A stretch of 39,641 nt of DNA from an uncultured Pseudomonadales bacterium (GCA_964364145.1 CAYILC010000002.1:1-39641); one strand, 5' to 3'; shown: positions 5,579-25,633, counted from the stretch's first letter. Notes: a model not told the origin generated them from the letters alone. Numbers and translations are program-made.

Positions 5579-6676
5579 ATGTTCGATATTGTTCAAAAAA
5601 TTCAGCAAATCTTCATCCACATGTTTGTCCAAGACATTGGCATTGATCTTGGAACCGCGAACACCGTGGTACACGTGCGTGGTGAGGGAATTGTGATTCA
5701 AGAGCCGTCGGTTGTCGCGCGCAATCGAGCAACTGGGGATATTTTGGCAATTGGAGAGCAAGCTAAACGCATGATAGGAAAGACACCACAAGGCATCGAG
5801 GCGATACGTCCGCTTCGCGATGGGGTGATTGCAGATTTTGACGCGGCCGAGGCATTGCTGGCGCACGACATTCAGGTAGTTACCGAGAAATATAGGCGTA
5901 TTCCATATCTTTCTCAACTATTCATGCGTCCGCGCGTGGTGATTGGGATTCCGTCTGGGGTGACCGAGGTGGAGCGGCGAGCTGTGCGAGCCGCTGCACT
6001 CTCTGCTGGTGCGTTTCAGGCTTTTTTGATCGAGGAACCGATGGCCGCCGCCATTGGCGCTGGTTTACATGTCGAGGAGCCTGAAGGTCGCATGATTGTG
6101 GATATTGGTGGTGGAACAACCGAGATCGCGGTTATTTCTTTAGGCGGCATTGTACTCAATACATCATTGCGGATAGCGGGGGATGAGTTCGATGAAGCGG
6201 TGATCTCATTTGCGCGAATGAGATACGGATTGCTGATTGGTGAAGCAACTGCCGAGCAAACAAAAATTGCGATTGGAAGTGCCTCGCCATTTGAAGAGAA
6301 AGTGGATAAACAACACGCATATCAGCACGTGATTCGTGGTCGCGATATAGAGTCTGGTTTGCCAAAATCGGTGAAGGTTAATAGCATGGAACTGCGTGAG
6401 GCGTTAACACCAACGGTGCAACAGATCACCACTGCCATTATAGAAACACTTGAGGAAACACCACCGGAACTTGTTGCTGATATTATGAAAACAGGGATCA
6501 CTTTGGCTGGTGGCAGTTCACAGTTACGCGGCCTAGAACAACGCATCGCCGAGGTTACCACCATGCCCGTCTGGATCGCCAAAGAACCGAGTCTTGCCGT
6601 TGTTCGCGGGTGTGCGGAGTTGTTGGACAAACCAGCATTGTTGAAAAAAGCACAAGTTGGGGGAGGACTGCGTTGA
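5579..6676 (+). CDS. mreB: Rod-shape determining actin homologue MreB
   Basis: GIDLGTANTVV, DIGGGTTEIAV and LAGGSSQLRGL actin-fold motifs. It is followed by mreC and mreD. Confidence 0.95.
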   Translation: MFDIVQKIQQIFIHMFVQDIGIDLGTANTVVHVRGEGIVIQEPSVVARNRATGDILAIGEQAKRMIGKTPQGIEAIRPLRDGVIADFDAAEALLAHDIQVVTEKYRRIPYLSQLFMRPRVVIGIPSGVTEVERRAVRAAALSAGAFQAFLIEEPMAAAIGAGLHVEEPEGRMIVDIGGGTTEIAVISLGGIVLNTSLRIAGDEFDEAVISFARMRYGLLIGEATAEQTKIAIGSASPFEEKVDKQHAYQHVIRGRDIESGLPKSVKVNSMELREALTPTVQQITTAIIETLEETPPELVADIMKTGITLAGGSSQLRGLEQRIAEVTTMPVWIAKEPSLAVVRGCAELLDKPALLKKAQVGGGLR

Positions 6677-12622: not shown

Positions 12623-12668
12623 ATTGTCTCAAGCATTGGTATGACCCCACTTGGACTCGGACTACGAC

Positions 12669-12674
12669 TATAAT
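12669..12674 (+). promoter_or_regulatory. Consensus -10 hexamer TATAAT, 6 nt upstream of the kinase ATG
   Basis: The sequence is gacTATAATatagtaATG, with no SD. Confidence 0.45.
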
Positions 12675-12680
12675 ATAGTA

Positions 12681-13547
12681 ATGAACTCTCATTCACCTGC
12701 TGAGGTCAATAATATTCCACAAATTCTATCCTTTTTCGGTCTCGAAACGGTTGTAAAAGTGGTTCCTATTACCGATGGACTTGGAAATCATAGTTATATT
12801 GTAAAAACTTCCCAAGGTGAGTTTGTTATTAAATTTCTTGTGACGCAAAAGCCGGTGGGCATTGAAAACGATCTTGCAGTCCAGAAACAGCTACTTCAAA
12901 TACATGTAAACACCCCGACATATCTTTCAAACAAAGTGAATGAATACATCTATACGGAAGACAATCAACAAGCTGTTGTTTCAAAAAAGATGAGCGGAAT
13001 TACTCCTAGGTATGCAAGTAAGGGTCTTGCATATTCAATTGGAAGAACACTTGCATTGTTTCACAAATGCATAATTACATTACCACATCCGCTCAAGGGG
13101 TGGATGAGTCCTGATATGTTTGGCATGCATACCAAAGAAGCAAAACTCTTGTTTGGGAGAAACCTACCTCAGGGTATAACACATGGTGATATGCATTTGG
13201 GAAATATTCTTGTTGATCCAAAAAAACCAGATATAGTACATGCAATCTTCGATTTTGAAGAGGTGGGAGAGGATGTACTTCTTGTTGACCTTGCTCGATC
13301 TATTATGGGAGTTTGCTACTCAAAGGATGAAGAGAGTTTGATGCCAGAGCTTATACAAGCAGAGATTCAAGGATATGAGTCTGTAAGAAAATTATCGGAT
13401 GATGAAAAAACGCTTTTACCACAAGCCGTTGCATATGCCGCCGATGTCTGCATCAAGTGGTTTGTCGATCATAAATATGAGAAATACGTGGAACAACATC
13501 GCAAACGCGCAAAGAGTTTTGATAAATTTTCTTTGCTGAAAAAATGA
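12681..13547 (+). CDS. APH/choline-kinase-fold phosphotransferase (homoserine kinase type II-like)
   Basis: Brenner-type catalytic loop HGDMHLGNILVD and a metal-binding FDFEEVG motif. The substrate cannot be inferred. Confidence 0.7.
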   Translation: MNSHSPAEVNNIPQILSFFGLETVVKVVPITDGLGNHSYIVKTSQGEFVIKFLVTQKPVGIENDLAVQKQLLQIHVNTPTYLSNKVNEYIYTEDNQQAVVSKKMSGITPRYASKGLAYSIGRTLALFHKCIITLPHPLKGWMSPDMFGMHTKEAKLLFGRNLPQGITHGDMHLGNILVDPKKPDIVHAIFDFEEVGEDVLLVDLARSIMGVCYSKDEESLMPELIQAEIQGYESVRKLSDDEKTLLPQAVAYAADVCIKWFVDHKYEKYVEQHRKRAKSFDKFSLLKK

Positions 13548-13735
13548 AGAGGGTTTAAACACCTCAAGGATAATATTCGGTATAGGAAGTCGTTAGGTGA
13601 GTAAATGGGGGGACTTGGAATAAAAACTCTCAACGAACTCTCTCGTCCGAGTACTACTCGCTACGGGGAACATTTATCCTATAACTATTAATGAACTGGT
13701 CTTGAAATATCGCAATATTGTTATATTATCATCAT

Positions 13736-14008
13736 ATGAACTGGAAAACACACAAAAAACTATTACTAAAAAACTCTGAGTTTAAAAAAGCCCTCAAGGA
13801 AACTGAACTTGAGTATTCTATTGCGAGATCCATCATCGAAGCAAGAACACGAAAAGGTATAACGCAGAAAAAATTGGCGATGAAACTGCATACAAAACAA
13901 TCAGTCATTTCTAGAATTGAACACGCAAAAACAACGCCGTCTTTATCATTCCTTAAAAGAATAGCAAAGACATTTAAAACACCTCTTCGTGTTGAGTTTG
14001 GGCCATAA
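13736..14008 (+). CDS. XRE-family helix-turn-helix protein (antitoxin-like)
   Basis: HTH region GITQKKLAMKLHTKQSVISRIE. The 90-aa size and layout resemble HigA/Gp48-type antitoxins, but no toxin ORF is adjacent. Confidence 0.7.
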   Translation: MNWKTHKKLLLKNSEFKKALKETELEYSIARSIIEARTRKGITQKKLAMKLHTKQSVISRIEHAKTTPSLSFLKRIAKTFKTPLRVEFGP

Positions 14009-14058: not shown

Positions 14059-14613
14059 ATGGTTCTTTCTGACAAAGACATCCGCAAGTACATAGCGCAA
14101 AAGAAAATTGTGGTGGAGCCGCTTCATGATGAACACATTCGGCCGGCCGCGATCGATCTTACCCTTCACCAAAATTTCCGCGTATTTCGCAACAACGCGC
14201 ACACGCATATCGATGTAAAAAAAGAGTTTGACGTCACTGAGCTAGTGAAAGCGAAAGAAGATGGCTCGATCATTATTCACCCCCGCGAGTTTATTTTAGG
14301 CTCAACGCAGGAAATCATTACATTGTCTTCCGATCTCATTGGATTATTGGAAGGTCGATCATCGCTTGGGCGCATTGGACTTATCGTGCACGCAACCGCG
14401 AGTTTTGTTCAGCCGGGATTTTCCGGCTATTTGACGTTTGAGATGAGCAATATCAGCAATCTGCCGATCAAGATTTACGCCGGCATGCGTGTTGCACAAC
14501 TTGCATTTTTGCAGATGAGCTCGCCGGTTGAGATTGACTACTCAAAACTGAGTAATAAGTATCAGGACCAGGAGCCGCCAACAGCCTCGAAGATTTGGAA
14601 GGATTTTGAGTAG
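14059..14613 (+). CDS. dcd: dCTP deaminase (dUTPase-fold; possibly bifunctional dCTP deaminase/dUTPase)
   Basis: MVLSDKDIRKYI..., GRSSLGRIGL and the TFEMSN region are typical of the Dcd family. Whether it is mono- or bifunctional cannot be decided by eye. Confidence 0.88.
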   Translation: MVLSDKDIRKYIAQKKIVVEPLHDEHIRPAAIDLTLHQNFRVFRNNAHTHIDVKKEFDVTELVKAKEDGSIIIHPREFILGSTQEIITLSSDLIGLLEGRSSLGRIGLIVHATASFVQPGFSGYLTFEMSNISNLPIKIYAGMRVAQLAFLQMSSPVEIDYSKLSNKYQDQEPPTASKIWKDFE

Positions 14614-15106: not shown

Positions 15107-16741
15107 ATGCAAAAAACCAAAATGACAAAAATAACTAAACAGAAAAAACAATCGTTGTCAAAGAACGCCATCGACCTTTCCCACTGGCCCATCCTCTATA
15201 AAGACATTCTCAAGGTTAAAAATCCTCGCCATCACGTGGCGGTGTGTTGCTTGTGGACCGAGCGCCAAGTCATCGAAACACTGCTCAAAAACATCGAGTA
15301 CAACACCATTGGAAATCTCTACAGCGCACAAGGTATCAACTCCATGATGCGCAATATCTTTGCCAACCCTCACATTCGCGTGATTGTCATTTGGGGCGCA
15401 GAAATGTCGCTCTCTGGCCATTCATTACTCATGTTCAAACAAAAAGGCGTGGATAAAGAAAATCGGAAGATTATTGCGGCGCGCGGTGAGATCGAAAAAG
15501 AAATTCCTGATGACATCATTGAGGAGTTTCGAAAGGTGGTTGAGGTTGTCGATATGCGTGGACGAACGGCAGTAGATCTTGTTGCGAAGGTGAAAGAAAT
15601 GTCCAGCAAACACATGGAGCCATTTTCAGCCAAGACCCGCACCTTCCCGCAGGCCGAAGTCACAGTGCGCACCATGCCATCCGAGCAGGTTGGATTCCGC
15701 GTTTCTGCTCCAACCGTCGCAAAAACTTGGCTAAAGTTGCTCAATGAAATTCAAAAATACGGCCGACCCAAACACACGCGATACAGCAAAGACAACTCGC
15801 TCAAAGAGATCTTGAACTTAACCGCGGTCATCACCGATGAGGATCCAGAAAACATTTATTTCCCAGAATATTTGCCGTTTACGCGTGTAGAGTTGGAGGC
15901 GTATTATGCCGAGATGCTCACGGCTCGCCAAATTCCTGGTGTTGCGTATAACTATGGCAAACGCATGCGTGTAGACTTGGGCGTGGATCAAATTGCCGCG
16001 ATGAAAAATCTGTTGAAAAATCGTCCCGACAGTAAAAAGATGATAGCGACCACCATGAATCCGAAACTTGACTGGAATCAAGTCAACAAAGGGGATACGC
16101 CGTGTTTGGTTATGGTGTTGGGCTCGGTGCAGGACAACAAGTTTTTCTTTACCGCGCACTTTCGATCGCAGGATATGGTGCATGGATGGCCGCGAAACAC
16201 TTTTGCACTGCGCAAGCTGCAAAAGGATATTGCCGACTCTGCCGGCCTGCAAATGGGACCACTAACTATGATCACGCACTCTGCACACATGTACGCCGAT
16301 GATTTTGGTCTTGTGGATAATCTGTTAATGCAACACTATGAACCTGAGCTAGGTTACTCTCCTGCTGTTCACTTCACCTTTGAACCTCGAGGGAATGTGG
16401 TGGTCGAGGTGATTCCAGAAAAAGAGGCCTACGTGTGGCCGATGTTTTCGGAAAAATACAAAGAACAATCGGTGCCGTATGCCGTGGCAAAAACATTGCC
16501 GCTGATGCCAAAAAATCCGCAGTCTCAAGCGGAAAAACTTATTCGCGCCACGCTGTTTGAACCAAATGGTGGGCCAGCAATGAAAGTATTTGAAGGACGA
16601 ACCGCACAAGAAGTCGCATGGCAAATCACAGACTGGAACTATTTATCTGAACCTGGTCACATCATGTATATTGGACTGGAACTGCAAAAAGCAGAGGAGT
16701 CGATTCGAAAAGGGAAGTCGTATAATCAGGATCCGGCGTAA
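15107..16741 (+). CDS. Thymidylate synthase (ThyA-fold) fused to an N-terminal MtrA-like domain and a C-terminal DUF4346-like domain
   Basis: The central region carries ThyA motifs: GVAYNYGKRMR, VDQI, NRPDSKKMIATTMNP, TPC(333)LVM, FRSQD..GWPRN(364) and HSAHMY. The N-terminus (VAVCCLW...NPHIRVIVIWGAEMSLSGHSLL...KGVD...IIAARGEI...VVEVVDMRG) looks like the soluble domain of tetrahydromethanopterin S-methyltransferase subunit A. The C-terminus ends with EPGHIMYIGLELQKAEESIRKGKSYNQD. Confidence 0.8.
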   Translation: MQKTKMTKITKQKKQSLSKNAIDLSHWPILYKDILKVKNPRHHVAVCCLWTERQVIETLLKNIEYNTIGNLYSAQGINSMMRNIFANPHIRVIVIWGAEMSLSGHSLLMFKQKGVDKENRKIIAARGEIEKEIPDDIIEEFRKVVEVVDMRGRTAVDLVAKVKEMSSKHMEPFSAKTRTFPQAEVTVRTMPSEQVGFRVSAPTVAKTWLKLLNEIQKYGRPKHTRYSKDNSLKEILNLTAVITDEDPENIYFPEYLPFTRVELEAYYAEMLTARQIPGVAYNYGKRMRVDLGVDQIAAMKNLLKNRPDSKKMIATTMNPKLDWNQVNKGDTPCLVMVLGSVQDNKFFFTAHFRSQDMVHGWPRNTFALRKLQKDIADSAGLQMGPLTMITHSAHMYADDFGLVDNLLMQHYEPELGYSPAVHFTFEPRGNVVVEVIPEKEAYVWPMFSEKYKEQSVPYAVAKTLPLMPKNPQSQAEKLIRATLFEPNGGPAMKVFEGRTAQEVAWQITDWNYLSEPGHIMYIGLELQKAEESIRKGKSYNQDPA

Positions 16742-16799: not shown

Positions 16800-16817
16800 A
16801 CCCTTCGGGTCTTTTTT
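16800..16817 (+). terminator. Weak intrinsic terminator candidate after the thyA-like gene
   Basis: ACCC-ttc-GGGT stem followed by cTTTTTTg. The stem is only 4 bp, so confidence is low. Confidence 0.25.
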
Positions 16818-16851
16818 GTCTTTACAGGATTTACATATTCGTTACACTGAA

Positions 16852-17841
16852 ATGTATCCAAAGTGGAAAACATCCACTTTTGATCCCAAGAAACTCTGGA
16901 ACAATCCAGAGAAACCAAGTGAACAAAAGGGGGTGTTGTTGTCTGCAGTTGATGTGTATTCTCCCAAAAATATTTTTTTGATCAACGACGATATTCGCGT
17001 AGCTGAACTTCAGGCATTTTGTGGAATTAAGGGGTGTTTGCGGGATCTATTAGGAGGGTGCAGTACAGTACAAGCAAACGCCAATGAAGTTAAAACTCCG
17101 GGTATTGACTATATGTTTCGTCGGAATGGTGGATTGCATGTGAGTGTGGAGTGTGAAAGGCATCCACAGTATCTGGAACCACTTTCATCTTCTGCTCCAG
17201 AGGCTGCTTTACATAAGGCTTGGCATCTTCACAACGAAACAGGTAAACCCTCTGCTGCTTCAGACATCTTTTTTTATATTCACAATGAGCAAACAGGCAA
17301 GTGGGAGGTTCAGCATAAACTTGAACGTTTAAAACGTGAGCTCACTTCACATGAACTCGAACAAGAAATACAAGAACAACACAAGTTTCTTGTAGAAGGG
17401 AAGCATAGAAGGAAAGCCTTTTGGCATCCCGCGTTGGCGCTGGTCAATGGCTCGTCTTCTGGAGTATCGGATTATGTATGTGTTGAGTTTGATCCGTTTA
17501 TAGAGGAAGAGTTTGAGGCGTTTATGATTGACGCGCTCAGTACAGGCAAGTTTATAAACTCAAATGCTAGAGGGAGATTGATAGAGTATATTATTGAGTT
17601 CAAAAAACTTCGCGCATATGCCAACATCCCGTATACTTTTATTGAAACACATACCGGGAATGGGAATAGAGTTGACGTGGGTAGGTGGATGCAAGAATGG
17701 CATATGCAAGATATAGATGCGATAAATATGCTTATATACCAGATCGTTCAAGCACTTCCACACGCTTTGCGATTGATGAGACATAAAAACTTTGCCAAAA
17801 CTGTGTTTAAGCGAAATGGTGCAGTAACTTTTGAAGTGTGA
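16852..17841 (+). CDS. Hypothetical protein (329 aa from ATG 16852; the track start TTG 16816 lies in the T-run of the putative terminator)
   Basis: Long uninterrupted ORF between the thyA-like gene and tmk, with its stop 13 nt before the tmk GTG. I recognise no family and see no TM segments. Confidence 0.55.
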   Translation: MYPKWKTSTFDPKKLWNNPEKPSEQKGVLLSAVDVYSPKNIFLINDDIRVAELQAFCGIKGCLRDLLGGCSTVQANANEVKTPGIDYMFRRNGGLHVSVECERHPQYLEPLSSSAPEAALHKAWHLHNETGKPSAASDIFFYIHNEQTGKWEVQHKLERLKRELTSHELEQEIQEQHKFLVEGKHRRKAFWHPALALVNGSSSGVSDYVCVEFDPFIEEEFEAFMIDALSTGKFINSNARGRLIEYIIEFKKLRAYANIPYTFIETHTGNGNRVDVGRWMQEWHMQDIDAINMLIYQIVQALPHALRLMRHKNFAKTVFKRNGAVTFEV

Positions 17842-17854
17842 TATAAGGAATGTT

Positions 17855-18484
17855 GTGCAAAAAGGTTACTTAATTTCATTTGAAGGCGGCGAGGGAGCAG
17901 GGAAGACCGTTCAGATTAAGCGTCTTCGCGATACATTAACAGAACGAGGTTTTGACGTGGTGATTGTACGCGAACCGGGCGGAACCGTAATCTCGGAGCA
18001 GATCCGCGAAGTAGTGTTATCGGCAAAAAACATCGGCATTGCATACACTACCGAGGTTTTACTGTTTCAAGCGGCGCGCGCGCAACTGTATCGCGAGTTG
18101 GTTCTCCCAAGTCTTGAGGCACAGAAGATCGTCCTGATGGATCGTACCCGTGACTCCTCTATAATCTACCAAGGCATAGTGCGCCAATTTGGCGTGGACA
18201 CTATTGAAAAACTCAACAATATTTCAACTAAAGACACCTACCCCGACCTCACCTTTTTACTCGACATTCCAGTAGAGATTGGACTTGCACGGCGGTCCCA
18301 AACCGAAAAGATGGATAGACTTGATATGGAAACAAAAGATTTTCACCAAAAAGTACGCAATGCATATCTTGAGGTGGCGAAGAAGAATGATCATCATCGA
18401 TGGGCAGTTATAGATGCCTCGAAATCAATCGACAAAATAGCAGAAAATATTTGGAACATAGTCGAGAAAAAACTGAAACAGTGA
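17855..18484 (+). CDS. tmk: Thymidylate kinase (dTMP kinase)
   Basis: GYLISFEGGEGAGKT P-loop, REPGGT, and a DR..S motif (MDRTRDSSIIYQG). I chose the GTG at 17855, which follows an AAGGAA SD; the alternative is the TTG at 17831. Confidence 0.9.
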   Translation: MQKGYLISFEGGEGAGKTVQIKRLRDTLTERGFDVVIVREPGGTVISEQIREVVLSAKNIGIAYTTEVLLFQAARAQLYRELVLPSLEAQKIVLMDRTRDSSIIYQGIVRQFGVDTIEKLNNISTKDTYPDLTFLLDIPVEIGLARRSQTEKMDRLDMETKDFHQKVRNAYLEVAKKNDHHRWAVIDASKSIDKIAENIWNIVEKKLKQ

Positions 18485-18509
18485 AATACCTCTGGATACA
18501 GTATTGGTG

Positions 18510-18538
18510 TTGAACCTTTTATTTTCTTCGTGCATAAT
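18510..18538 (+). promoter_or_regulatory. Promoter TTGAAC-17 nt-CATAAT upstream of pyrH
   Basis: The -35 lies at 18510-18515 and the -10 at 18533-18538, preceded by TG. The 13-mer TCGTGCATAATAC (18528-18540) is identical to the one upstream of the sucC-like gene (38554-38566). Confidence 0.5.
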
Positions 18539-18581
18539 ACACCAGAACTTCTTATTCCGAAAAATCTTATTGGAGAAACTT

Positions 18582-19349
18582 ATGGTAATATCACAGCCAA
18601 ATCAGAAAAAAACTTCCACACGTTTTTCTCGAGTTCTTCTCAAAGTTGGCGGTGAGTCATTATTGGGTGATCGAGAGTATGGCATTTCACCTCAAGCAGC
18701 ATTAACCGTCGCAAAGCAAATCAAAGAAATTTATGATCTTGGTGTGCAGTTGGTTATTGTTGTTGGTGGCGGCAACATTTTCCGAGGGGTCGCTGGTGAG
18801 AAAAGCGGTATTGACCGAGCAACAGCAGACTATATGGGTATGCTTGCAACAGTCATCAATGCACTTGGATTACAGGATGCCTTAGAAAAAGTTGGCGTTC
18901 CAACACGCGTGCAGTCTGCCTTACAAATGCCGGCGGTTTCCGAGCCGTTTATTCGTCGCAGAGCAATTCGGCATTTAGAAAAGGGTAGAGTAGTGATCTT
19001 GGCCGCGGGAACAGGTGTACCATATGTGACGACCGATACAGGAGCATCCCTTCATGCCTTGGAACTTCACTGCGATGTGGTGATGAAGGCAACAAAAGTT
19101 GATGGAGTCTACGACAAAGATCCGATGAAATTTCCAGATGCCAAACGGTATAAAACGTTAAAGTTTATTGATGCACATAAGGATGAGAATGTTTTAGTGA
19201 TGGACTCTAGCGCTTTGGCCATGTGTATGGAGAACAACATGCCGGTGATGGTATTTGAACTGTTCAAGGCAGGAAATTTAAAGAAAGCGATTATTGGTGA
19301 GGATGTGGGAACATACGTGGCGAATGATGTGGAGACGGTGCTGGCGTAA
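18582..19349 (+). CDS. pyrH: Uridylate (UMP) kinase
   Basis: RVLLKVGGESL and VVGGGNIFRG amino-acid-kinase-fold motifs. The ATG at 18582 is preferred over the track start at 18504. Confidence 0.9.
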   Translation: MVISQPNQKKTSTRFSRVLLKVGGESLLGDREYGISPQAALTVAKQIKEIYDLGVQLVIVVGGGNIFRGVAGEKSGIDRATADYMGMLATVINALGLQDALEKVGVPTRVQSALQMPAVSEPFIRRRAIRHLEKGRVVILAAGTGVPYVTTDTGASLHALELHCDVVMKATKVDGVYDKDPMKFPDAKRYKTLKFIDAHKDENVLVMDSSALAMCMENNMPVMVFELFKAGNLKKAIIGEDVGTYVANDVETVLA

Positions 19350-19654: not shown

Positions 19655-20071
19655 ATGTCAGAGTATTTCCTTCTTGATACGAATGTTCTTCTGGCATTGT
19701 ATTGGCCCCATGATAATCTCCATATTCGTGCCGTAAACATGGTTACCAGTCTTCGGGATAAAAAAGCCCAATTCGCGACGGTTAGTCTTGTTATTCAGGA
19801 GTGCGTTACAGTGATCAGTATGCGAAAAGGAATGGATTCAGCAAAAGATTTTTATGCACATTATGGAACGATCATAGAAAAGGTGATTCAATTTGATGAA
19901 CAGCTTGAAGACAAGGCATGGAGAATTTTCCTCAAGCAAAAGAAGAAAGGCACATCGTTTGTTGATTGTGCGCTTGTGGCTACTGCAAAAAAACTTGGCA
20001 TGAAGGATATTCTTACCTATGACAAGTGGTTTAAATCCTGTGGTTTTCCGCTACAATACACCCAATCATGA
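19655..20071 (+). CDS. vapC: PIN-domain ribonuclease toxin VapC
   Basis: FLLDTNVLL (first acidic residue), ..QECVTV.., and SFVDCALVATAKKLGMKDILTYD, which are typical PIN acidic-residue positions. A GGAGAG SD lies upstream. Confidence 0.8.
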   Translation: MSEYFLLDTNVLLALYWPHDNLHIRAVNMVTSLRDKKAQFATVSLVIQECVTVISMRKGMDSAKDFYAHYGTIIEKVIQFDEQLEDKAWRIFLKQKKKGTSFVDCALVATAKKLGMKDILTYDKWFKSCGFPLQYTQS

Positions 20072-21096: not shown

Positions 21097-22425
21097 ATGA
21101 AAACTTCTACTGATCCAGTTTTTACACTCATCCAGCAAGAAAAAAAACGACAAGAAGAGACGCTCGCACTGATTCCTTCGGAGAATTATACGTCTCCAGA
21201 GGTTATGAAGGCTGTTGGCTCGGTGCTCATGAACAAGTATGCAGAAGGTCAAGCAAAAAAACGATACTACCAAGGCAATACGATTATCGATGAAGTGGAG
21301 CTACTTTGTAAATCACGAGCACTCCAAGTATTTGGTCTACGTGAGGATGAATGGGGGGTAAATGTTCAAACGCTTTCTGGAAGTCCGGCGAACTTGGCGG
21401 TATACGCCGCTTTGCTGGAGCCAGGGGATAAGATCTTTTCAATGTATCTTCCTGATGGAGGCCATTTATCGCATGGCTGGCAAATGCCTGGAAAAAAAGT
21501 AACCTTAGTCTCAAAGATTTGGGACATCGAGTTTTATCATGTAAGTAAAGAAACGCGTGTGTTCGATTATGATCAAATCGAGCAACAGGCGCTAAAGTTT
21601 AGACCAAAGCTTATTGTTTCGGGCGGAACCGCGTATCCTCGTGAAATCGATCACAAACGTATGGGGGCTATTGCCAAAAAAGTTGGAGCATATTATCTTG
21701 CAGATGTTGCGCATGAGGCTGGGCTTATTGCCGGCGGCGCAAACACTTCACCATTTCCGTATGCTGATGTTGTAAGCATGACCACACACAAAACACTCCG
21801 TGGCCCTCGCGGCGCGATGGTGTTTGCCCGAAAACCAATTGATGAAGCAATAGACAAAGCAGTTTTTCCTGGCCTTCAAGGTGGTCCGCATGAACACACT
21901 ATTGGCGGCATTGCTGTGGCACTTGGAGAGGCACTACGGCCTTCTTTTAAGAATTATGCCCGGCAAGTAGTGGTTAATGCACAGCTCTTGGCTGCCAAGT
22001 TAAAATCTGCTGGATATGATGTTGTCTCGGATGGTACCGATAAACACTTGGTCTTGGTTGATCTCCGTTCTGTTGGTCTTTCCGGATGGGTGGCGGCTTG
22101 GGCTTTGGAGTATGCCGGGATTGTTGTGAATCGCAATACTGTTCCATACGAAACCGCGTCACCGTTTTTTCCTTCTGGTTTACGATTGGGAACCCCAGCA
22201 GTAACTACTCGAGGTATGAAAGAAAAAGAAATGCAGTATATTGCTGATTGGATCATCAAGATACTTACGTACGCAAAGAAGTGGCAACTCCCTGAAGATA
22301 TAGAACGTCGCAAGGAATTTACTCGGGCATTTCGAAAAGAAATCGTTACAGATCGTTTTCTTCATGATGTGCGAAAAAATGTTGTTGCGCTTTGTAAACG
22401 GTTCCCGATTTACAGGAAGTCATGA
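21097..22425 (+). CDS. glyA: Serine hydroxymethyltransferase
   Basis: SENYTSPEVM, and the PLP-lysine region VSMTTHKTLRGPRG. Confidence 0.95.
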   Translation: MKTSTDPVFTLIQQEKKRQEETLALIPSENYTSPEVMKAVGSVLMNKYAEGQAKKRYYQGNTIIDEVELLCKSRALQVFGLREDEWGVNVQTLSGSPANLAVYAALLEPGDKIFSMYLPDGGHLSHGWQMPGKKVTLVSKIWDIEFYHVSKETRVFDYDQIEQQALKFRPKLIVSGGTAYPREIDHKRMGAIAKKVGAYYLADVAHEAGLIAGGANTSPFPYADVVSMTTHKTLRGPRGAMVFARKPIDEAIDKAVFPGLQGGPHEHTIGGIAVALGEALRPSFKNYARQVVVNAQLLAAKLKSAGYDVVSDGTDKHLVLVDLRSVGLSGWVAAWALEYAGIVVNRNTVPYETASPFFPSGLRLGTPAVTTRGMKEKEMQYIADWIIKILTYAKKWQLPEDIERRKEFTRAFRKEIVTDRFLHDVRKNVVALCKRFPIYRKS

Positions 22426-23990: not shown

Positions 23991-24833
23991 ATGAAAACAC
24001 CTCGTCGACTTGGCGCCCATCTTTCTGTTGCTGGCGGTCTTGTCAGCGCCGCACAAAATATGATTTCCATGAGTGGTAACTGTTTGCAGATTTTTTCCGG
24101 ATCTCCGAGAAGTTGGACCAGAAAGCCGTTGGAGCAAGCAAAAGCGGATGCGTATAAAACATTCTGCAAAGACCACAATTTTGGCCCAACCTTTATCCAC
24201 GCACTGTATCTCATCAATTTGAGTGGTGATCGCGACGACCTCATCCACCATTCGATTGATGCACTCACATATGATCTACAATACTCATCGCAGATTGGCG
24301 CAAGCGGAGTCATTGTCCATCTGGGAAGTCACCTTGGAAAGGGTTTTGAAGCGGTGTTTGATGTGTTGGTAAAGCGCATGCGCGAAATCTTGGATGCGAC
24401 ACCTACTAATAGCACGTTACTCATTGAAAATTCTGCGGGGCAGAAAGGAAAGTTGTGTTCTGATTTTGCCGATATTCAACGGCTATATACTGCGTTGCCC
24501 ACGTATGTCGAAAAACAACGACTTGCTTGGTGTTTTGATACGTGTCATGGATTTGCGGCGGGGTATGACTTGGCGCATATAGACCAGGAAATGAAGAAAC
24601 ACGATTTGTTGAACTCTCTCAAAGTAATCCACTTGAACGACTCACGCGATCCTTTTAACAGTGGCCGTGATCGTCATGAGAATATTGGCAAAGGATTGAT
24701 TGGAGAGAACGGGATGAAATCGGTCGCACAAAACCCAGCATTTGCACATCTCCCACTCATTCTGGAAGTCCCAGGTTTTGACGGCAACGGTCCGGATGCA
24801 AAAAATATTGAGATTGTAAAGAACCTCATATGA
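23991..24833 (+). CDS. nfo: Endonuclease IV (AP endonuclease, TIM barrel)
   Basis: GAHLSVAGGL, VIVHLGSH, IENSAGQ, VIHLNDS and LILEVP metal-site regions. Confidence 0.9.
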   Translation: MKTPRRLGAHLSVAGGLVSAAQNMISMSGNCLQIFSGSPRSWTRKPLEQAKADAYKTFCKDHNFGPTFIHALYLINLSGDRDDLIHHSIDALTYDLQYSSQIGASGVIVHLGSHLGKGFEAVFDVLVKRMREILDATPTNSTLLIENSAGQKGKLCSDFADIQRLYTALPTYVEKQRLAWCFDTCHGFAAGYDLAHIDQEMKKHDLLNSLKVIHLNDSRDPFNSGRDRHENIGKGLIGENGMKSVAQNPAFAHLPLILEVPGFDGNGPDAKNIEIVKNLI

Positions 24834-25633
24834 TGATCTTTGACGGCAAAGCCGTAGCTTATGAGCGAAAGAAACTACTGAAAGAGAAGATCAGTAAACT
24901 TCCTCATTTACGTATATATTCATTGGTATTTCAAGAAGATCATCCTAGTATAATTTATGCCAACTTGAAGAAAAAAGATGCTGAATCGGTTGGAGTAGAG
25001 TACGAGATTGTCATCCTGCCAATAAGTACAACACTTGAAGAAGTGAAAGAGCGACTTTTACAAGCAGGAGCAGATTCAACAATTTCAGCAATCATTGTCC
25101 AAAAACCAGCGAAGACTTTGGAGCCAAACCCAACTTGGTGGTCAGAAATTGTTTCATCAATTCATCAAAAAAAAGACGTGGATGGCCTTCGGCTAGATCG
25201 AGTGGTACTTCCGGCAACAGCGCGGGCAATTCTCTCGATCTTTGATAGTGCATGTGAACACCTGCGATTCAAGCCGAAAGGGAAAGTTGCAGTGGTTTTA
25301 GGAAGAAGTGAAATTGTGGGAAAACCTGTCGCCGATGAACTTGAAAAGCGGTATCACATGATTGTGCATCGGTTTGGCCGCAAAGAACTTGCAACTCAGC
25401 CGGAAATACTCAAACAGGCAGACTTACTCGTATCTGCCACAGGACAAGAAGGTTTGGTAACGGACGACATGCTAAAACAGGGAGTGATTGTTATTGACGC
25501 GGGATCGCCGAAAGCAGAGGTAAACACAACAGGGTTGTTTGAGGTTGCAAGTTTTCTTTCACCGGTTCCTGGCGGCGTTGGGCCGATGACACGAGTCTGC
25601 CTCTTGGAAAATCTTATTGACCTGGTACAATAG
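24830..25633 (+). CDS. folD: Bifunctional 5,10-methylene-THF dehydrogenase/cyclohydrolase
   Basis: VLGRSEIVGKPVA Rossmann region and the PVPGGVGPMT C-terminal signature. There is an ATGA overlap with nfo. The protein is somewhat short at 267 aa. Confidence 0.88.
   Translation: MMIFDGKAVAYERKKLLKEKISKLPHLRIYSLVFQEDHPSIIYANLKKKDAESVGVEYEIVILPISTTLEEVKERLLQAGADSTISAIIVQKPAKTLEPNPTWWSEIVSSIHQKKDVDGLRLDRVVLPATARAILSIFDSACEHLRFKPKGKVAVVLGRSEIVGKPVADELEKRYHMIVHRFGRKELATQPEILKQADLLVSATGQEGLVTDDMLKQGVIVIDAGSPKAEVNTTGLFEVASFLSPVPGGVGPMTRVCLLENLIDLVQ
25623..25631 (+). promoter_or_regulatory. Extended -10 promoter TGgTACAAT inside the folD 3' end, upstream of the rpsB leader
   Basis: The same 9-mer occurs at glyA (21080-21088) and rpsT (29446-29454). 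It would give a ~75-nt rpsB 5' UTR containing a hairpin at 25659-25690 and the SD AAGGAG. Confidence 0.45.

Follow-up and report, generated by a model that had tools for sequence, protein, structure and literature searches.

The window analyzed here is a stretch of 39,641 nucleotides deposited under the name of an uncultured Pseudomonadales bacterium (GCA_964364145.1 CAYILC010000002.1:1-39641). As the original prediction from the sequence had claimed, it carries an uninterrupted open reading frame (ORF) of 544 codons plus stop, which runs from ATG to TAA on the plus strand (Table 1) and whose product joins a thymidylate synthase (ThyA) core to an MtrA-like domain at the N-terminus and a DUF4346 domain at the C-terminus. 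Searches with Pfam profiles recovered all three domains, each at about twice its curated cut-off: MtrA (PF04208; 55.9 bits, cut-off 25), Thymidylat_synt (PF00303; amino acids [aa] 283 to 411, E = 6.5e-14, 52.2 bits, cut-off 24.3), and PterinBD-DUF4346 (PF14251; aa 477 to 542, 50.9 bits, cut-off 29.6). A sequence search of the PDB matched the N-terminal part to MtrA (8q3v, 5laa, 5l8x) and the center to ThyA structures. The AlphaFold2 (AF2) model of the full protein reached a predicted local distance difference test (pLDDT) score of 81.8 and a predicted template modeling (pTM) score of 0.73. The motifs that had been quoted for the three domains were located at the expected residues, namely TPC (331-333), FRSQD (352-356), GWPRN (360-364), and HSAHMY (391-396) in the core; VAVCCLW (44-50), NPHIRVIVIWGAE (87-99), SGH (103-105), KGVD (113-116), IIAARGEI (122-129), and VVEVVDMRG (144-152) in the N-domain; and EPGHIMYIGLELQKAEESIRKGKSYNQD (515-542) at the C-terminal end. 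In an alignment of 132 sequences (131 divergent family members and the query), P191 of the linker between the N-domain and the core was present in 113 sequences and E193 in 85. The position of the true start codon is in doubt because the N-terminal tail, which spans 20 to 25 residues from the annotated start and is unstructured in the model, differs in length among homologues, from 0 to ~60 aa; homologues begin near the equivalent of aa 20. An in-frame stop codon sits just 3 codons upstream of the ATG of the ORF. A weak promoter-like site ends 4 nt ahead of the ATG, and a ribosome-binding site was not evident there.

The identical protein is encoded on a second, independent contig, and the fusion proved to be widespread. 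A search of a 90%-clustered collection gave 450 matches. The best 120 of these 450 are 61 to 100% identical to the query, all but one of them (a protein of 446 aa covering 78% of the query) have the three Pfam domains, and the names among them point to Pacebacteria, Woesebacteria, Cerribacteria, and the Microgenomates group. A HMMER search of 1.84 billion 50%-identity representatives yielded 277 clusters at E < 1e-30, most of them with a length of 450 to 530 aa. Among 93 divergent representatives (28 to 57% identity), Thymidylat_synt was found in 92, DUF4346 in 91, and MtrA in 74. A scan of GTDB, made with one genome per species and with close-family patterns that undercount distant members, gave 55 loci and hence at least 55 species. 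Five of the loci come from metagenome-assembled genomes of Chloroflexota, and the others come from Microgenomates-group members of the candidate phyla radiation (CPR), namely, Pace-, Woese-, Cerri-, Chisholm-, Beckwith-, Roizman-, Woyke-, and Amesbacteria. As the same layout recurs across independent contigs, clusters, and GTDB loci, the three-domain architecture is, judged by this distribution, old and vertically maintained and no artifact. An assembly chimera, against which the ORF had to be checked, was rejected on the same counts. No relative of the fusion was present among the viral contigs of IMG/VR, and a phage origin was rejected for that reason.

Within the divergent family, the N-domain had a mean pairwise identity of 0.32, the ThyA core one of 0.35, and DUF4346 one of 0.34, compared to 0.23 for the linker. 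These values exclude the possibility, raised in the original prediction, that the flanking regions are inert linkers. With a constraint equal to that on the core, the two accessory domains are functional parts of the protein.

Within NCBIfam, the center of the protein (aa 199 to 400) matched the methanogen-type ThyA model TIGR03283 over profile positions 3 to 198 of 201 with E = 1.4e-36, whereas the bacterial ThyA models reached only E ~1e-10 on the same region. A hidden Markov model (HMM) of the family aligned with residues 93 to 222 of Escherichia coli ThyA (E = 2e-25). In this alignment, Y94, C146, R166, S167, D169, N177, H207, and Y209 of the E. coli enzyme correspond to Y283, C333, R353, S354, D356, N364, H394, and Y396, respectively, and R126/R127 corresponds to K310/K311, which is Arg-Arg in most of the family. 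E58 of E. coli was assigned to the conserved E234 by motif position and not by the HMM alignment. The mapped catalytic positions are at least 90% conserved among 93 to 139 divergent members. The nucleophile Cys333, with P332-C333 aligned to P145-C146 of E. coli, is invariant in alignments A1 (36 sequences), A2 (46 sequences), A3 (15 sequences), and A7 (93 sequences). The catalytic set named beforehand (Cys333, Arg353, Ser354, Asp356, and Asn364) was thereby traced to the E. coli residues, and the correspondence shows, at the level of sequence, a complete ThyA active site for dUMP (deoxyuridine monophosphate) in the core. The Arg-Arg pair by which ThyA binds the phosphate of dUMP across its dimer is replaced by Lys-Lys at aa 310 and 311 (positions 16034 to 16039), and this Lys-Lys pair does not vary within the close family.

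No counterpart was identified for the R21-E58 segment of canonical ThyA, for the W80/W83 folate-contact region, or for the last 40 residues, which include the lid carboxylate; DUF4346 begins where the C-terminal strands of canonical ThyA would stand. A Foldseek search with the AF2 model assigned the ThyA fold with a probability of 1.0, and the best template modeling (TM) score was 0.81, to the small ThyA-fold enzymes 9iqu and 9iqc, which is consistent with a pared-down core. Compared to canonical ThyA of E. coli and Bacillus subtilis (1bko), the fusion has the same fold, nucleophile, dUMP-binding residues, and pterin-contacting residues, but the alignable part of the E. coli enzyme is confined to the segment given above, and lysines stand in place of the arginine pair. 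The stand-alone methanogen or archaeal ThyA proteins (TIGR03283, ~200 aa, MJ0757-type) share the central 200 aa and the catalytic residues, whereas the core of the fusion is flanked by two extra domains and its hosts are bacteria (CPR and Chloroflexota) with the folate-type genes glyA, folD, and fmt. In mechanism, the fusion is predicted to resemble ThyA most, and the family match, the catalytic Cys, the dUMP-binding set, and the general acid/base and pterin-contact residues, by which ThyA membership can be judged from a sequence, are present.

The two small enzymes with the best TM scores and T4 dCMP hydroxymethylase, another of the best TM matches, modify dCMP, which would fit a core that acts as another type of ThyA-fold enzyme modifying C5 of a pyrimidine, such as a dUMP hydroxymethylase or hydroxylase. 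We regard this as very improbable. The uracil-specifying Asn364 is at least 90% conserved, whereas dCMP enzymes have Asp at this position; the gene is chromosomal, lies beside tmk, dcd, tdk, and glyA, and is absent from viral contigs; and the window showed no second thymidylate synthase.

The gene content of the window is that of a CPR-type bacterial chromosome, with fmt, def, mreBC, a gene for a PBP2-type penicillin-binding protein, dprA, topA, rpsB, tsf, frr, proS, and dnaX. Around the fusion lie dcd, tmk, pyrH, glyA, and folD (Table 1) and the GMP synthase gene. In the 55 related loci, a thymidylate kinase gene (tmk-like cluster) was present in 33, topA in 29, dprA in 23, genes for a deoxynucleoside/thymidine kinase, a ribonucleotide reductase, and a HAD hydrolase in 16 each, dcd in 13 (it also occurs beside divergent members), glyA in 9, and folD in 7. 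The Chloroflexota copies form an operon dcd-tdk-fusion, and P0135, a member with 35% identity, adjoins genes for serine hydroxymethyltransferase (SHMT), FolD, and DCD. The neighboring genes thus point to a conversion of dUMP to dTMP that is fed by methylene-tetrahydrofolate.

Table 1. Features of the three-domain thymidylate synthase gene and of its surroundings in the window
Feature	Position	Strand	Evidence or remark
Three-domain thymidylate synthase, 544 aa	15107..16741	+	Complete ORF; identical 544-aa protein P0001/P0002, independent contigs
Lys-rich low-complexity N-terminal tail, aa 1-24	15107..15178	+	pLDDT <50 for aa 1-19
MtrA-like Rossmann-type domain, aa 25-174	15179..15628	+	Pfam PF04208, E = 5.4e-15
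His105 codon	15419..15421	+	Aligns with MtrA Gln88, not His84
Linker, aa 175-194, motifs F180-P181 and P191-S192-E193	15629..15688	+	pLDDT 59-74
Archaeal/methanogen-type ThyA catalytic core, aa 195-415	15689..16351	+	TIGR03283, PF00303, family HMM, Foldseek
Catalytic nucleophile Cys333 codon (E. coli Cys146)	16103..16105	+	Invariant in A1, A2, A3, and A7
C-terminal DUF4346 domain, aa 420-544	16364..16738	+	PF14251, E = 2.8e-13
~39-aa insertion inside DUF4346, aa 438-476, two short helices	16418..16534	+	Microgenomates subfamily only
dCTP deaminase (dcd), feeds dUMP pool	14059..14613	+	TIGR02274, 196 bits, above cut-off
Thymidylate kinase (tmk), consumes dTMP product	17831..18484	+	PF02223, E = 1.9e-44
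UMP kinase (pyrH)	18504..19349	+	TIGR02075, 290.8 bits, above cut-off
SHMT (glyA), 5,10-methylene-tetrahydrofolate source	21097..22425	+	PF00464, E = 4e-157; NF000586, 502 bits
FolD, methylene-tetrahydrofolate dehydrogenase/cyclohydrolase	24830..25633	+	PF02882 and PF00763

We have good confidence, based on the active-site residues and the gene neighborhood, that the fusion would serve as the thymidylate synthase of the cell and would use 5,10-methylene-tetrahydrofolate provided by the neighboring SHMT. In the proposed reaction, dUMP and 5,10-methylene-tetrahydrofolate would be converted to dTMP and dihydrofolate. Cys333 would attack C6 of dUMP, the phosphate would be held by Arg353, Ser354, and Lys310/Lys311, and the uracil and the pterin would be read by Asn364 and Asp356.

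With respect to the N-domain, a profile of 19 divergent sequences matched 5laa, a cytoplasmic homologue of MtrA with bound cobalamin, along its full length with E = 4.4e-26, and MtrA was the only protein in the PDB matched by this profile. TIGR01111 scored 50 bits on the N-domain, far under its equivalog cut-off of 249. By these matches, the N-domain is a genuine MtrA homologue. In MtrA, His84 is the cobalt ligand and is hydrogen bonded by Glu54, the meander GAIPF/YxEN forms part of the cobalamin site, and Thr53, Gly57, and Asn64 form hydrogen bonds with cobalamin's nucleotide tail (Wagner et al. 2016, PMC4915002). The fate of the cobalt ligand was followed in three independent alignments, made with phmmer, with the family profile against PDB entries 5laa, 8q3v, and 5l8x, and with MAFFT (A8). 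In all three, Gly83-His84 of MtrA corresponds to a 2-residue deletion and Glu54 to a 1-residue deletion in the fusion. The meander is not kept; the region reads RGEIE--KE here and is variable across the family. The original prediction had matched the first ~170 aa to MtrA and had included in this match the cobalt-ligating His, identified as His105. The homology holds, but the ligand does not, as His84 is deleted. His105 was ruled out by the three alignments and by its lack of conservation: the commonest residues at this position in the 132-sequence alignment are E (37), D (23), Q (22), and K (16), and even within the close family P0042 has Q.

Other parts of the MtrA site are retained. Both proteins have the W-P start, and T53, G57, N64, and N68-P69 of MtrA correspond to S73, G76, N83, and N87-P88. 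In the 132 sequences, position 73 is S or T in 114, G76 is present in 130, and N83 is present in 118. The fusion lacks His84, Gly83, Glu54, the meander, and the membrane anchor of MtrA, and the position of Tyr18, which stacks on the dimethylbenzimidazole (DMB) in MtrA, is variable in the fusion family. At the same crevice, W50, Y72, R82, D/E99, and S103 form a family-specific set of near-invariant residues, of which W50, Y72, and R82 are new compared to MtrA. No mtr partner genes were seen in the window or the related loci. Because His84 and Glu54 are deleted in all ThyA fusions examined, the alignments indicate that the N-domain is a derived MtrA homologue which cannot bind a corrinoid in the His-on mode of MtrA. 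The conserved crevice indicates that some ligand or interface is still under selection there, other than MtrA-style His-on cobalamin.

The DUF4346 domain follows the last ThyA helix directly, with its first strand at aa 426 to 437 and its main body at aa 477 to 542. Its hallmark residues are D/E426-P-R-G429, H518-x-x-Y-x-G523-x-E-L-x-x-A529-E, and Y539-x-Q541-D542, of which H518, G523, A529, and Q541 are at least 90% conserved. The ~39-aa insertion sits between the first and second strands and is missing in the wider family (A3) and in stand-alone proteins; since it splits the domain, the Pfam match begins at profile position 16. The AF2 model of DUF4346 alone had a pLDDT score of 87 and a beta3-alpha2 fold. 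The domain also matched the C-terminus of TIGR00284, a model of dihydropteroate-synthase (DHPS)-like proteins (profile positions 434 to 494 of 497, E = 6.5e-7), which supports the earlier description of DUF4346 as a companion of pterin modules. In these MJ0301-type proteins the partner of the C-terminal DUF4346 is a pterin-binding TIM barrel and not ThyA, and no MtrA-like match to the TIGR00284 profile was detected. A search with the C-domain of P0184 gave no candidates for other DUF4346 architectures, and a tblastn search of plasmids with the C-domain was negative. The FolP-fused dihydropteroate reductase of Levin and coworkers (2007) is said to carry its extra domain at the N-terminus and to bind flavin mononucleotide with it, and we did not equate that domain with DUF4346.

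A second family combines the two accessory domains in the absence of ThyA. The model NF002128 (390 aa, named MtrA) matched the N-domain with its positions 111 to 261 and the C-domain with its positions 313 to 370, and therefore implies a family with the two domains side by side. The fusion scored 78 bits against this model (cut-off, 568), with the two matching halves set apart by ~300 aa that comprise the linker, the ThyA core, and the insertion (aa 175 to 476). When plasmids were searched by tblastn with the N-domain, a protein of this two-domain type was found on those of Planococcus. In the protein from Planococcus kocurii (WP_051627662.1; 458 aa), a Cys-rich N-terminal region is followed by an MtrA domain (128 bits), ~30 aa of linker, and a DUF4346 domain (70 bits). 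Its best NCBIfam model is NF002128, and it retains 'SRGH' with His84 and 'STENLG' with Glu54. The stand-alone family, which is found in Firmicutes and Chloroflexota, gave 1489 matches, among them proteins of Desulfosporosinus, Desulfitobacteriaceae, Peptococcaceae, Clostridium, and Ktedonobacterales.

Compared to the stand-alone proteins, the fusion has the same two domains in the same order, but in the former they are contiguous, preceded by the Cys-rich region, equipped with His84 and Glu54, and set among metal-resistance genes. The hallmark residues of DUF4346 are the same in the fusion and in the stand-alone Planococcus protein, so the role of this domain would be independent of ThyA. The simplest reading of these comparisons is that an MtrA+DUF4346 unit received a ThyA core in its linker and lost its corrinoid ligands afterwards. 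Four stand-alone genes were inspected in their contexts (L061, 464-1840, on plasmid NZ_CP013660.2; L062, 8001-9164; L063, 8001-9152; and L064, 8001-9203), and all four lie directly beside genes for ArsR-type (HTH_5) or MerR regulators. Heavy-metal genes in these surroundings encode P-type ATPases with HMA domains, cation efflux proteins, an aquaglyceroporin, and an ArsC-like phosphatase. From its ligands and its setting, the stand-alone family looks like an uncharacterized corrinoid protein tied to metal or metalloid resistance.

It is conceivable that the N-domain of the fusion holds a cobamide in a His-off mode or with another ligand, perhaps His518 of DUF4346, and that this cobamide carries the methyl group or acts as reductant, which would give ThyA a noncanonical source of one-carbon units or electrons. 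By its match to 5laa, the N-domain is a true homologue of a cobalamin-bound protein, the tail-pocket positions are retained, and His518 is invariant. In addition, the parent-type stand-alone proteins keep His and Glu, so that DUF4346 normally works beside a corrinoid domain, and the ribonucleotide reductase found in 16 of the 55 loci would be B12 dependent if it belongs to class II. We nevertheless consider such a role quite unlikely. The two ligand residues and the meander are gone in every fusion examined, the Tyr18 position varies, and His105 is not conserved. The ThyA core keeps all residues for ordinary methylene transfer and hydride chemistry, genes for cobalamin uptake or remodeling were not seen in the window or the neighborhoods, and the protein has no methyl-pterin-binding barrel with which the corrinoid could be reloaded.

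Taken as a whole, the fusion is probably best explained as a ThyA-type thymidylate synthase with an accessory MtrA-like and DUF4346 module. The two domains would act jointly as a cofactor-handling module, binding or positioning the pterin or folate for a core without the canonical folate-binding parts. We propose this part with low confidence and for three reasons: DUF4346 also occurs on DHPS-like pterin enzymes, the Rossmann crevice keeps its own set of residues (W50, Y72, R82, D/E99, and S103), and the chain ends in a near-invariant Y-x-Q-D that recalls the C-terminal lid of ThyA. Several points weigh against the explanation. The proposed one-carbon donor and pterin fate are deduced solely from neighboring genes, and the proposed pterin-handling role from domain co-occurrence and conservation. 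The score of the core against TIGR03283 (125.9 bits) misses the equivalog cut-off of 174.55, and by this measure the core is a relative of that equivalog and not a member. Neither Foldseek (best E = 0.28) nor phmmer found a relative of DUF4346 in the PDB. Finally, Thr53, Gly57, and Asn64 of the MtrA tail pocket are retained, and a cobamide or another nucleotide-like ligand might still be bound without a His ligand.

The accessory domains might also be noncatalytic and serve, with no contact to folate, as a scaffold for oligomerization or stability or as an allosteric nucleotide sensor. The loss of the ligand-specific residues of MtrA with retention of its fold would fit such a role, S73, G76, and N83 could bind a nucleotide phosphate, and the existence of ~200-aa methanogen ThyA proteins on their own (TIGR03283, length 201) suggests that the core could in principle suffice. 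However, the accessory domains are as conserved as the catalytic core, the invariant polar residues W50, R82, H518, Q541, and D542 are more typical of a ligand site, and the occurrence of the same DUF4346 hallmarks in unrelated partner proteins points to a shared chemical role. A purely structural or sensory function is therefore doubtful, though it deserves to be kept in mind.

The original prediction had further suggested a noncanonical one-carbon donor or a built-in recycling of the cofactor. This is speculation, as nothing found here favors either over ordinary methylene-tetrahydrofolate chemistry. One form of this idea is that the accessory domains reduce dihydrofolate or supply the hydride in place of tetrahydrofolate, as the flavin does in ThyX, which would give a FolA-independent enzyme with a logic like that of protozoan DHFR-TS, a bifunctional protein that fuses dihydrofolate reductase (DHFR) to thymidylate synthase (TS). 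A tblastn search with FolA of E. coli detected no FolA-like sequence in the window (39.6 kb) or in the 10 kb flanking the gene on either side in any of the 55 related loci, and no DHFR Pfam match was present in five additional contexts examined. Furthermore, a Rossmann-type domain precedes the thymidylate synthase part, as DHFR does in DHFR-TS; DUF4346 is found on two types of enzymes that release 7,8-dihydropterins (DHPS-like proteins and ThyA); and a flavin-using ThyA-fold enzyme (9iqc/9iqu) is among the closest structural relatives of the core. On the other hand, no dinucleotide- or flavin-binding motif and no similarity to reductases in Pfam, NCBIfam, or the PDB was detected, a folA-free stretch of 20 kb says little about a genome of ~1 Mb, folA is reported to be common in CPR genomes (PMC11974145), and the stand-alone MtrA+DUF4346 proteins occur in metal-resistance and not in folate contexts. 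We judge this form of recycling to be improbable.

The protozoan and plant DHFR-TS proteins resemble the fusion in having an extra alpha/beta domain at the N-terminal side of the thymidylate synthase, and Foldseek aligned the thymidylate synthase halves. They differ in that the N-domain of the fusion is MtrA-like, that the fusion has an additional C-terminal domain, and that the root mean square deviation of the superposition exceeds 20 A outside the thymidylate synthase part. No DHFR family in Pfam or NCBIfam matched the fusion at E values up to 10. An identity as a bifunctional DHFR-TS was rejected because of the missing DHFR match and the MtrA-like nature of the N-domain.

Thymidylate synthesis is essential, and the class of enzyme that a cell uses decides whether it depends on dihydrofolate reductase. 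To our knowledge, ThyA and ThyX are the only classes of thymidylate synthase. There is a small chance that the accessory module of the fusion binds a cobamide (in a His-off state or with His518 as its ligand) or some other redox cofactor, and that this cofactor provides the one-carbon unit or the reducing equivalents, so that dTMP would be formed without release of dihydrofolate and without a need for FolA. The fusion would then represent a third mechanistic class beside ThyA and ThyX, typical of Microgenomates-group CPR bacteria and of some Chloroflexota. Most likely, however, the module is an accessory folate-binding one and does not bring about a new reaction; if the domains are ordinary aids of this kind, the fusion differs only modestly in structure from a well-known enzyme. 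In either case, ultra-small, host-dependent Microgenomates-group bacteria and some Chloroflexota rely on a ThyA fixed to two equally conserved domains, one of which descends from a B12-binding protein, while the other is of unknown function and accompanies pterin enzymes. Learning the roles of these domains could give DUF4346 its first function, could reveal how minimal ThyA cores bind the pterin, and could show whether the hosts escape the coupling of ThyA to FolA.

Full-text literature searches returned no paper mentioning DUF4346 and none that describes a ThyA with MtrA-like and DUF4346 domains or links MtrA and thymidylate synthase in this way. In public databases the fusions are annotated as 'thymidylate synthase', 'hypothetical protein', or 'DUF4346 domain-containing protein'. 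The domain combination is visible in precomputed Pfam annotation, but the architecture appears to be uncharacterized. The fusion is a real, widespread, and uncharacterized variant of a well-known enzyme.

Further observations concern the genes near the fusion. A 341-aa ORF (16816-17841, plus strand) lies between the thymidylate synthase gene and tmk and overlaps the start of tmk by 11 nt. It had no Pfam or NCBIfam match, and tblastn gave no counterpart of it in any of the 55 loci; it was rejected as a partner of the fusion on these grounds and represents an orphan gene or else a spurious ORF within an otherwise conserved thyA-tmk arrangement. Genes for a PIN-domain protein (19655-20071), an HTH_3 regulator (13718-14008), and an APH-type phosphotransferase (12651-13547), all on the plus strand, are interspersed in the nucleotide-metabolism cluster, and none of the three recurs in related loci. 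The ribonucleotide reductases of the 16 related loci, of which the one at positions 6552 to 8747 of L025 is an example, have ~730 aa, an ATP-cone, the Ribonuc_red_lgN/lgC domains, and a Cys-rich C-terminal tail. If this reductase is a B12-dependent class II enzyme, the cells in question need cobalamin.

Like the window, further contigs titled 'uncultured Pseudomonadales bacterium' carry a CPR-type fusion gene with CPR-type neighbors (L006, L007, L009-L011, L014, L016, L017, L021, L024, L027, L041, L042, L049, and L050), and L037 is titled 'uncultured Gammaproteobacteria bacterium'. The Pseudomonadales and Gammaproteobacteria titles on such contigs are probably placeholders or wrong labels. One family member, P0185 (L056, 572-2773), from a groundwater 0.1-um fraction, has a fourth domain, a C-terminal dCMP/cytidine deaminase, which would join the production of dUMP and the synthesis of dTMP in a single chain.

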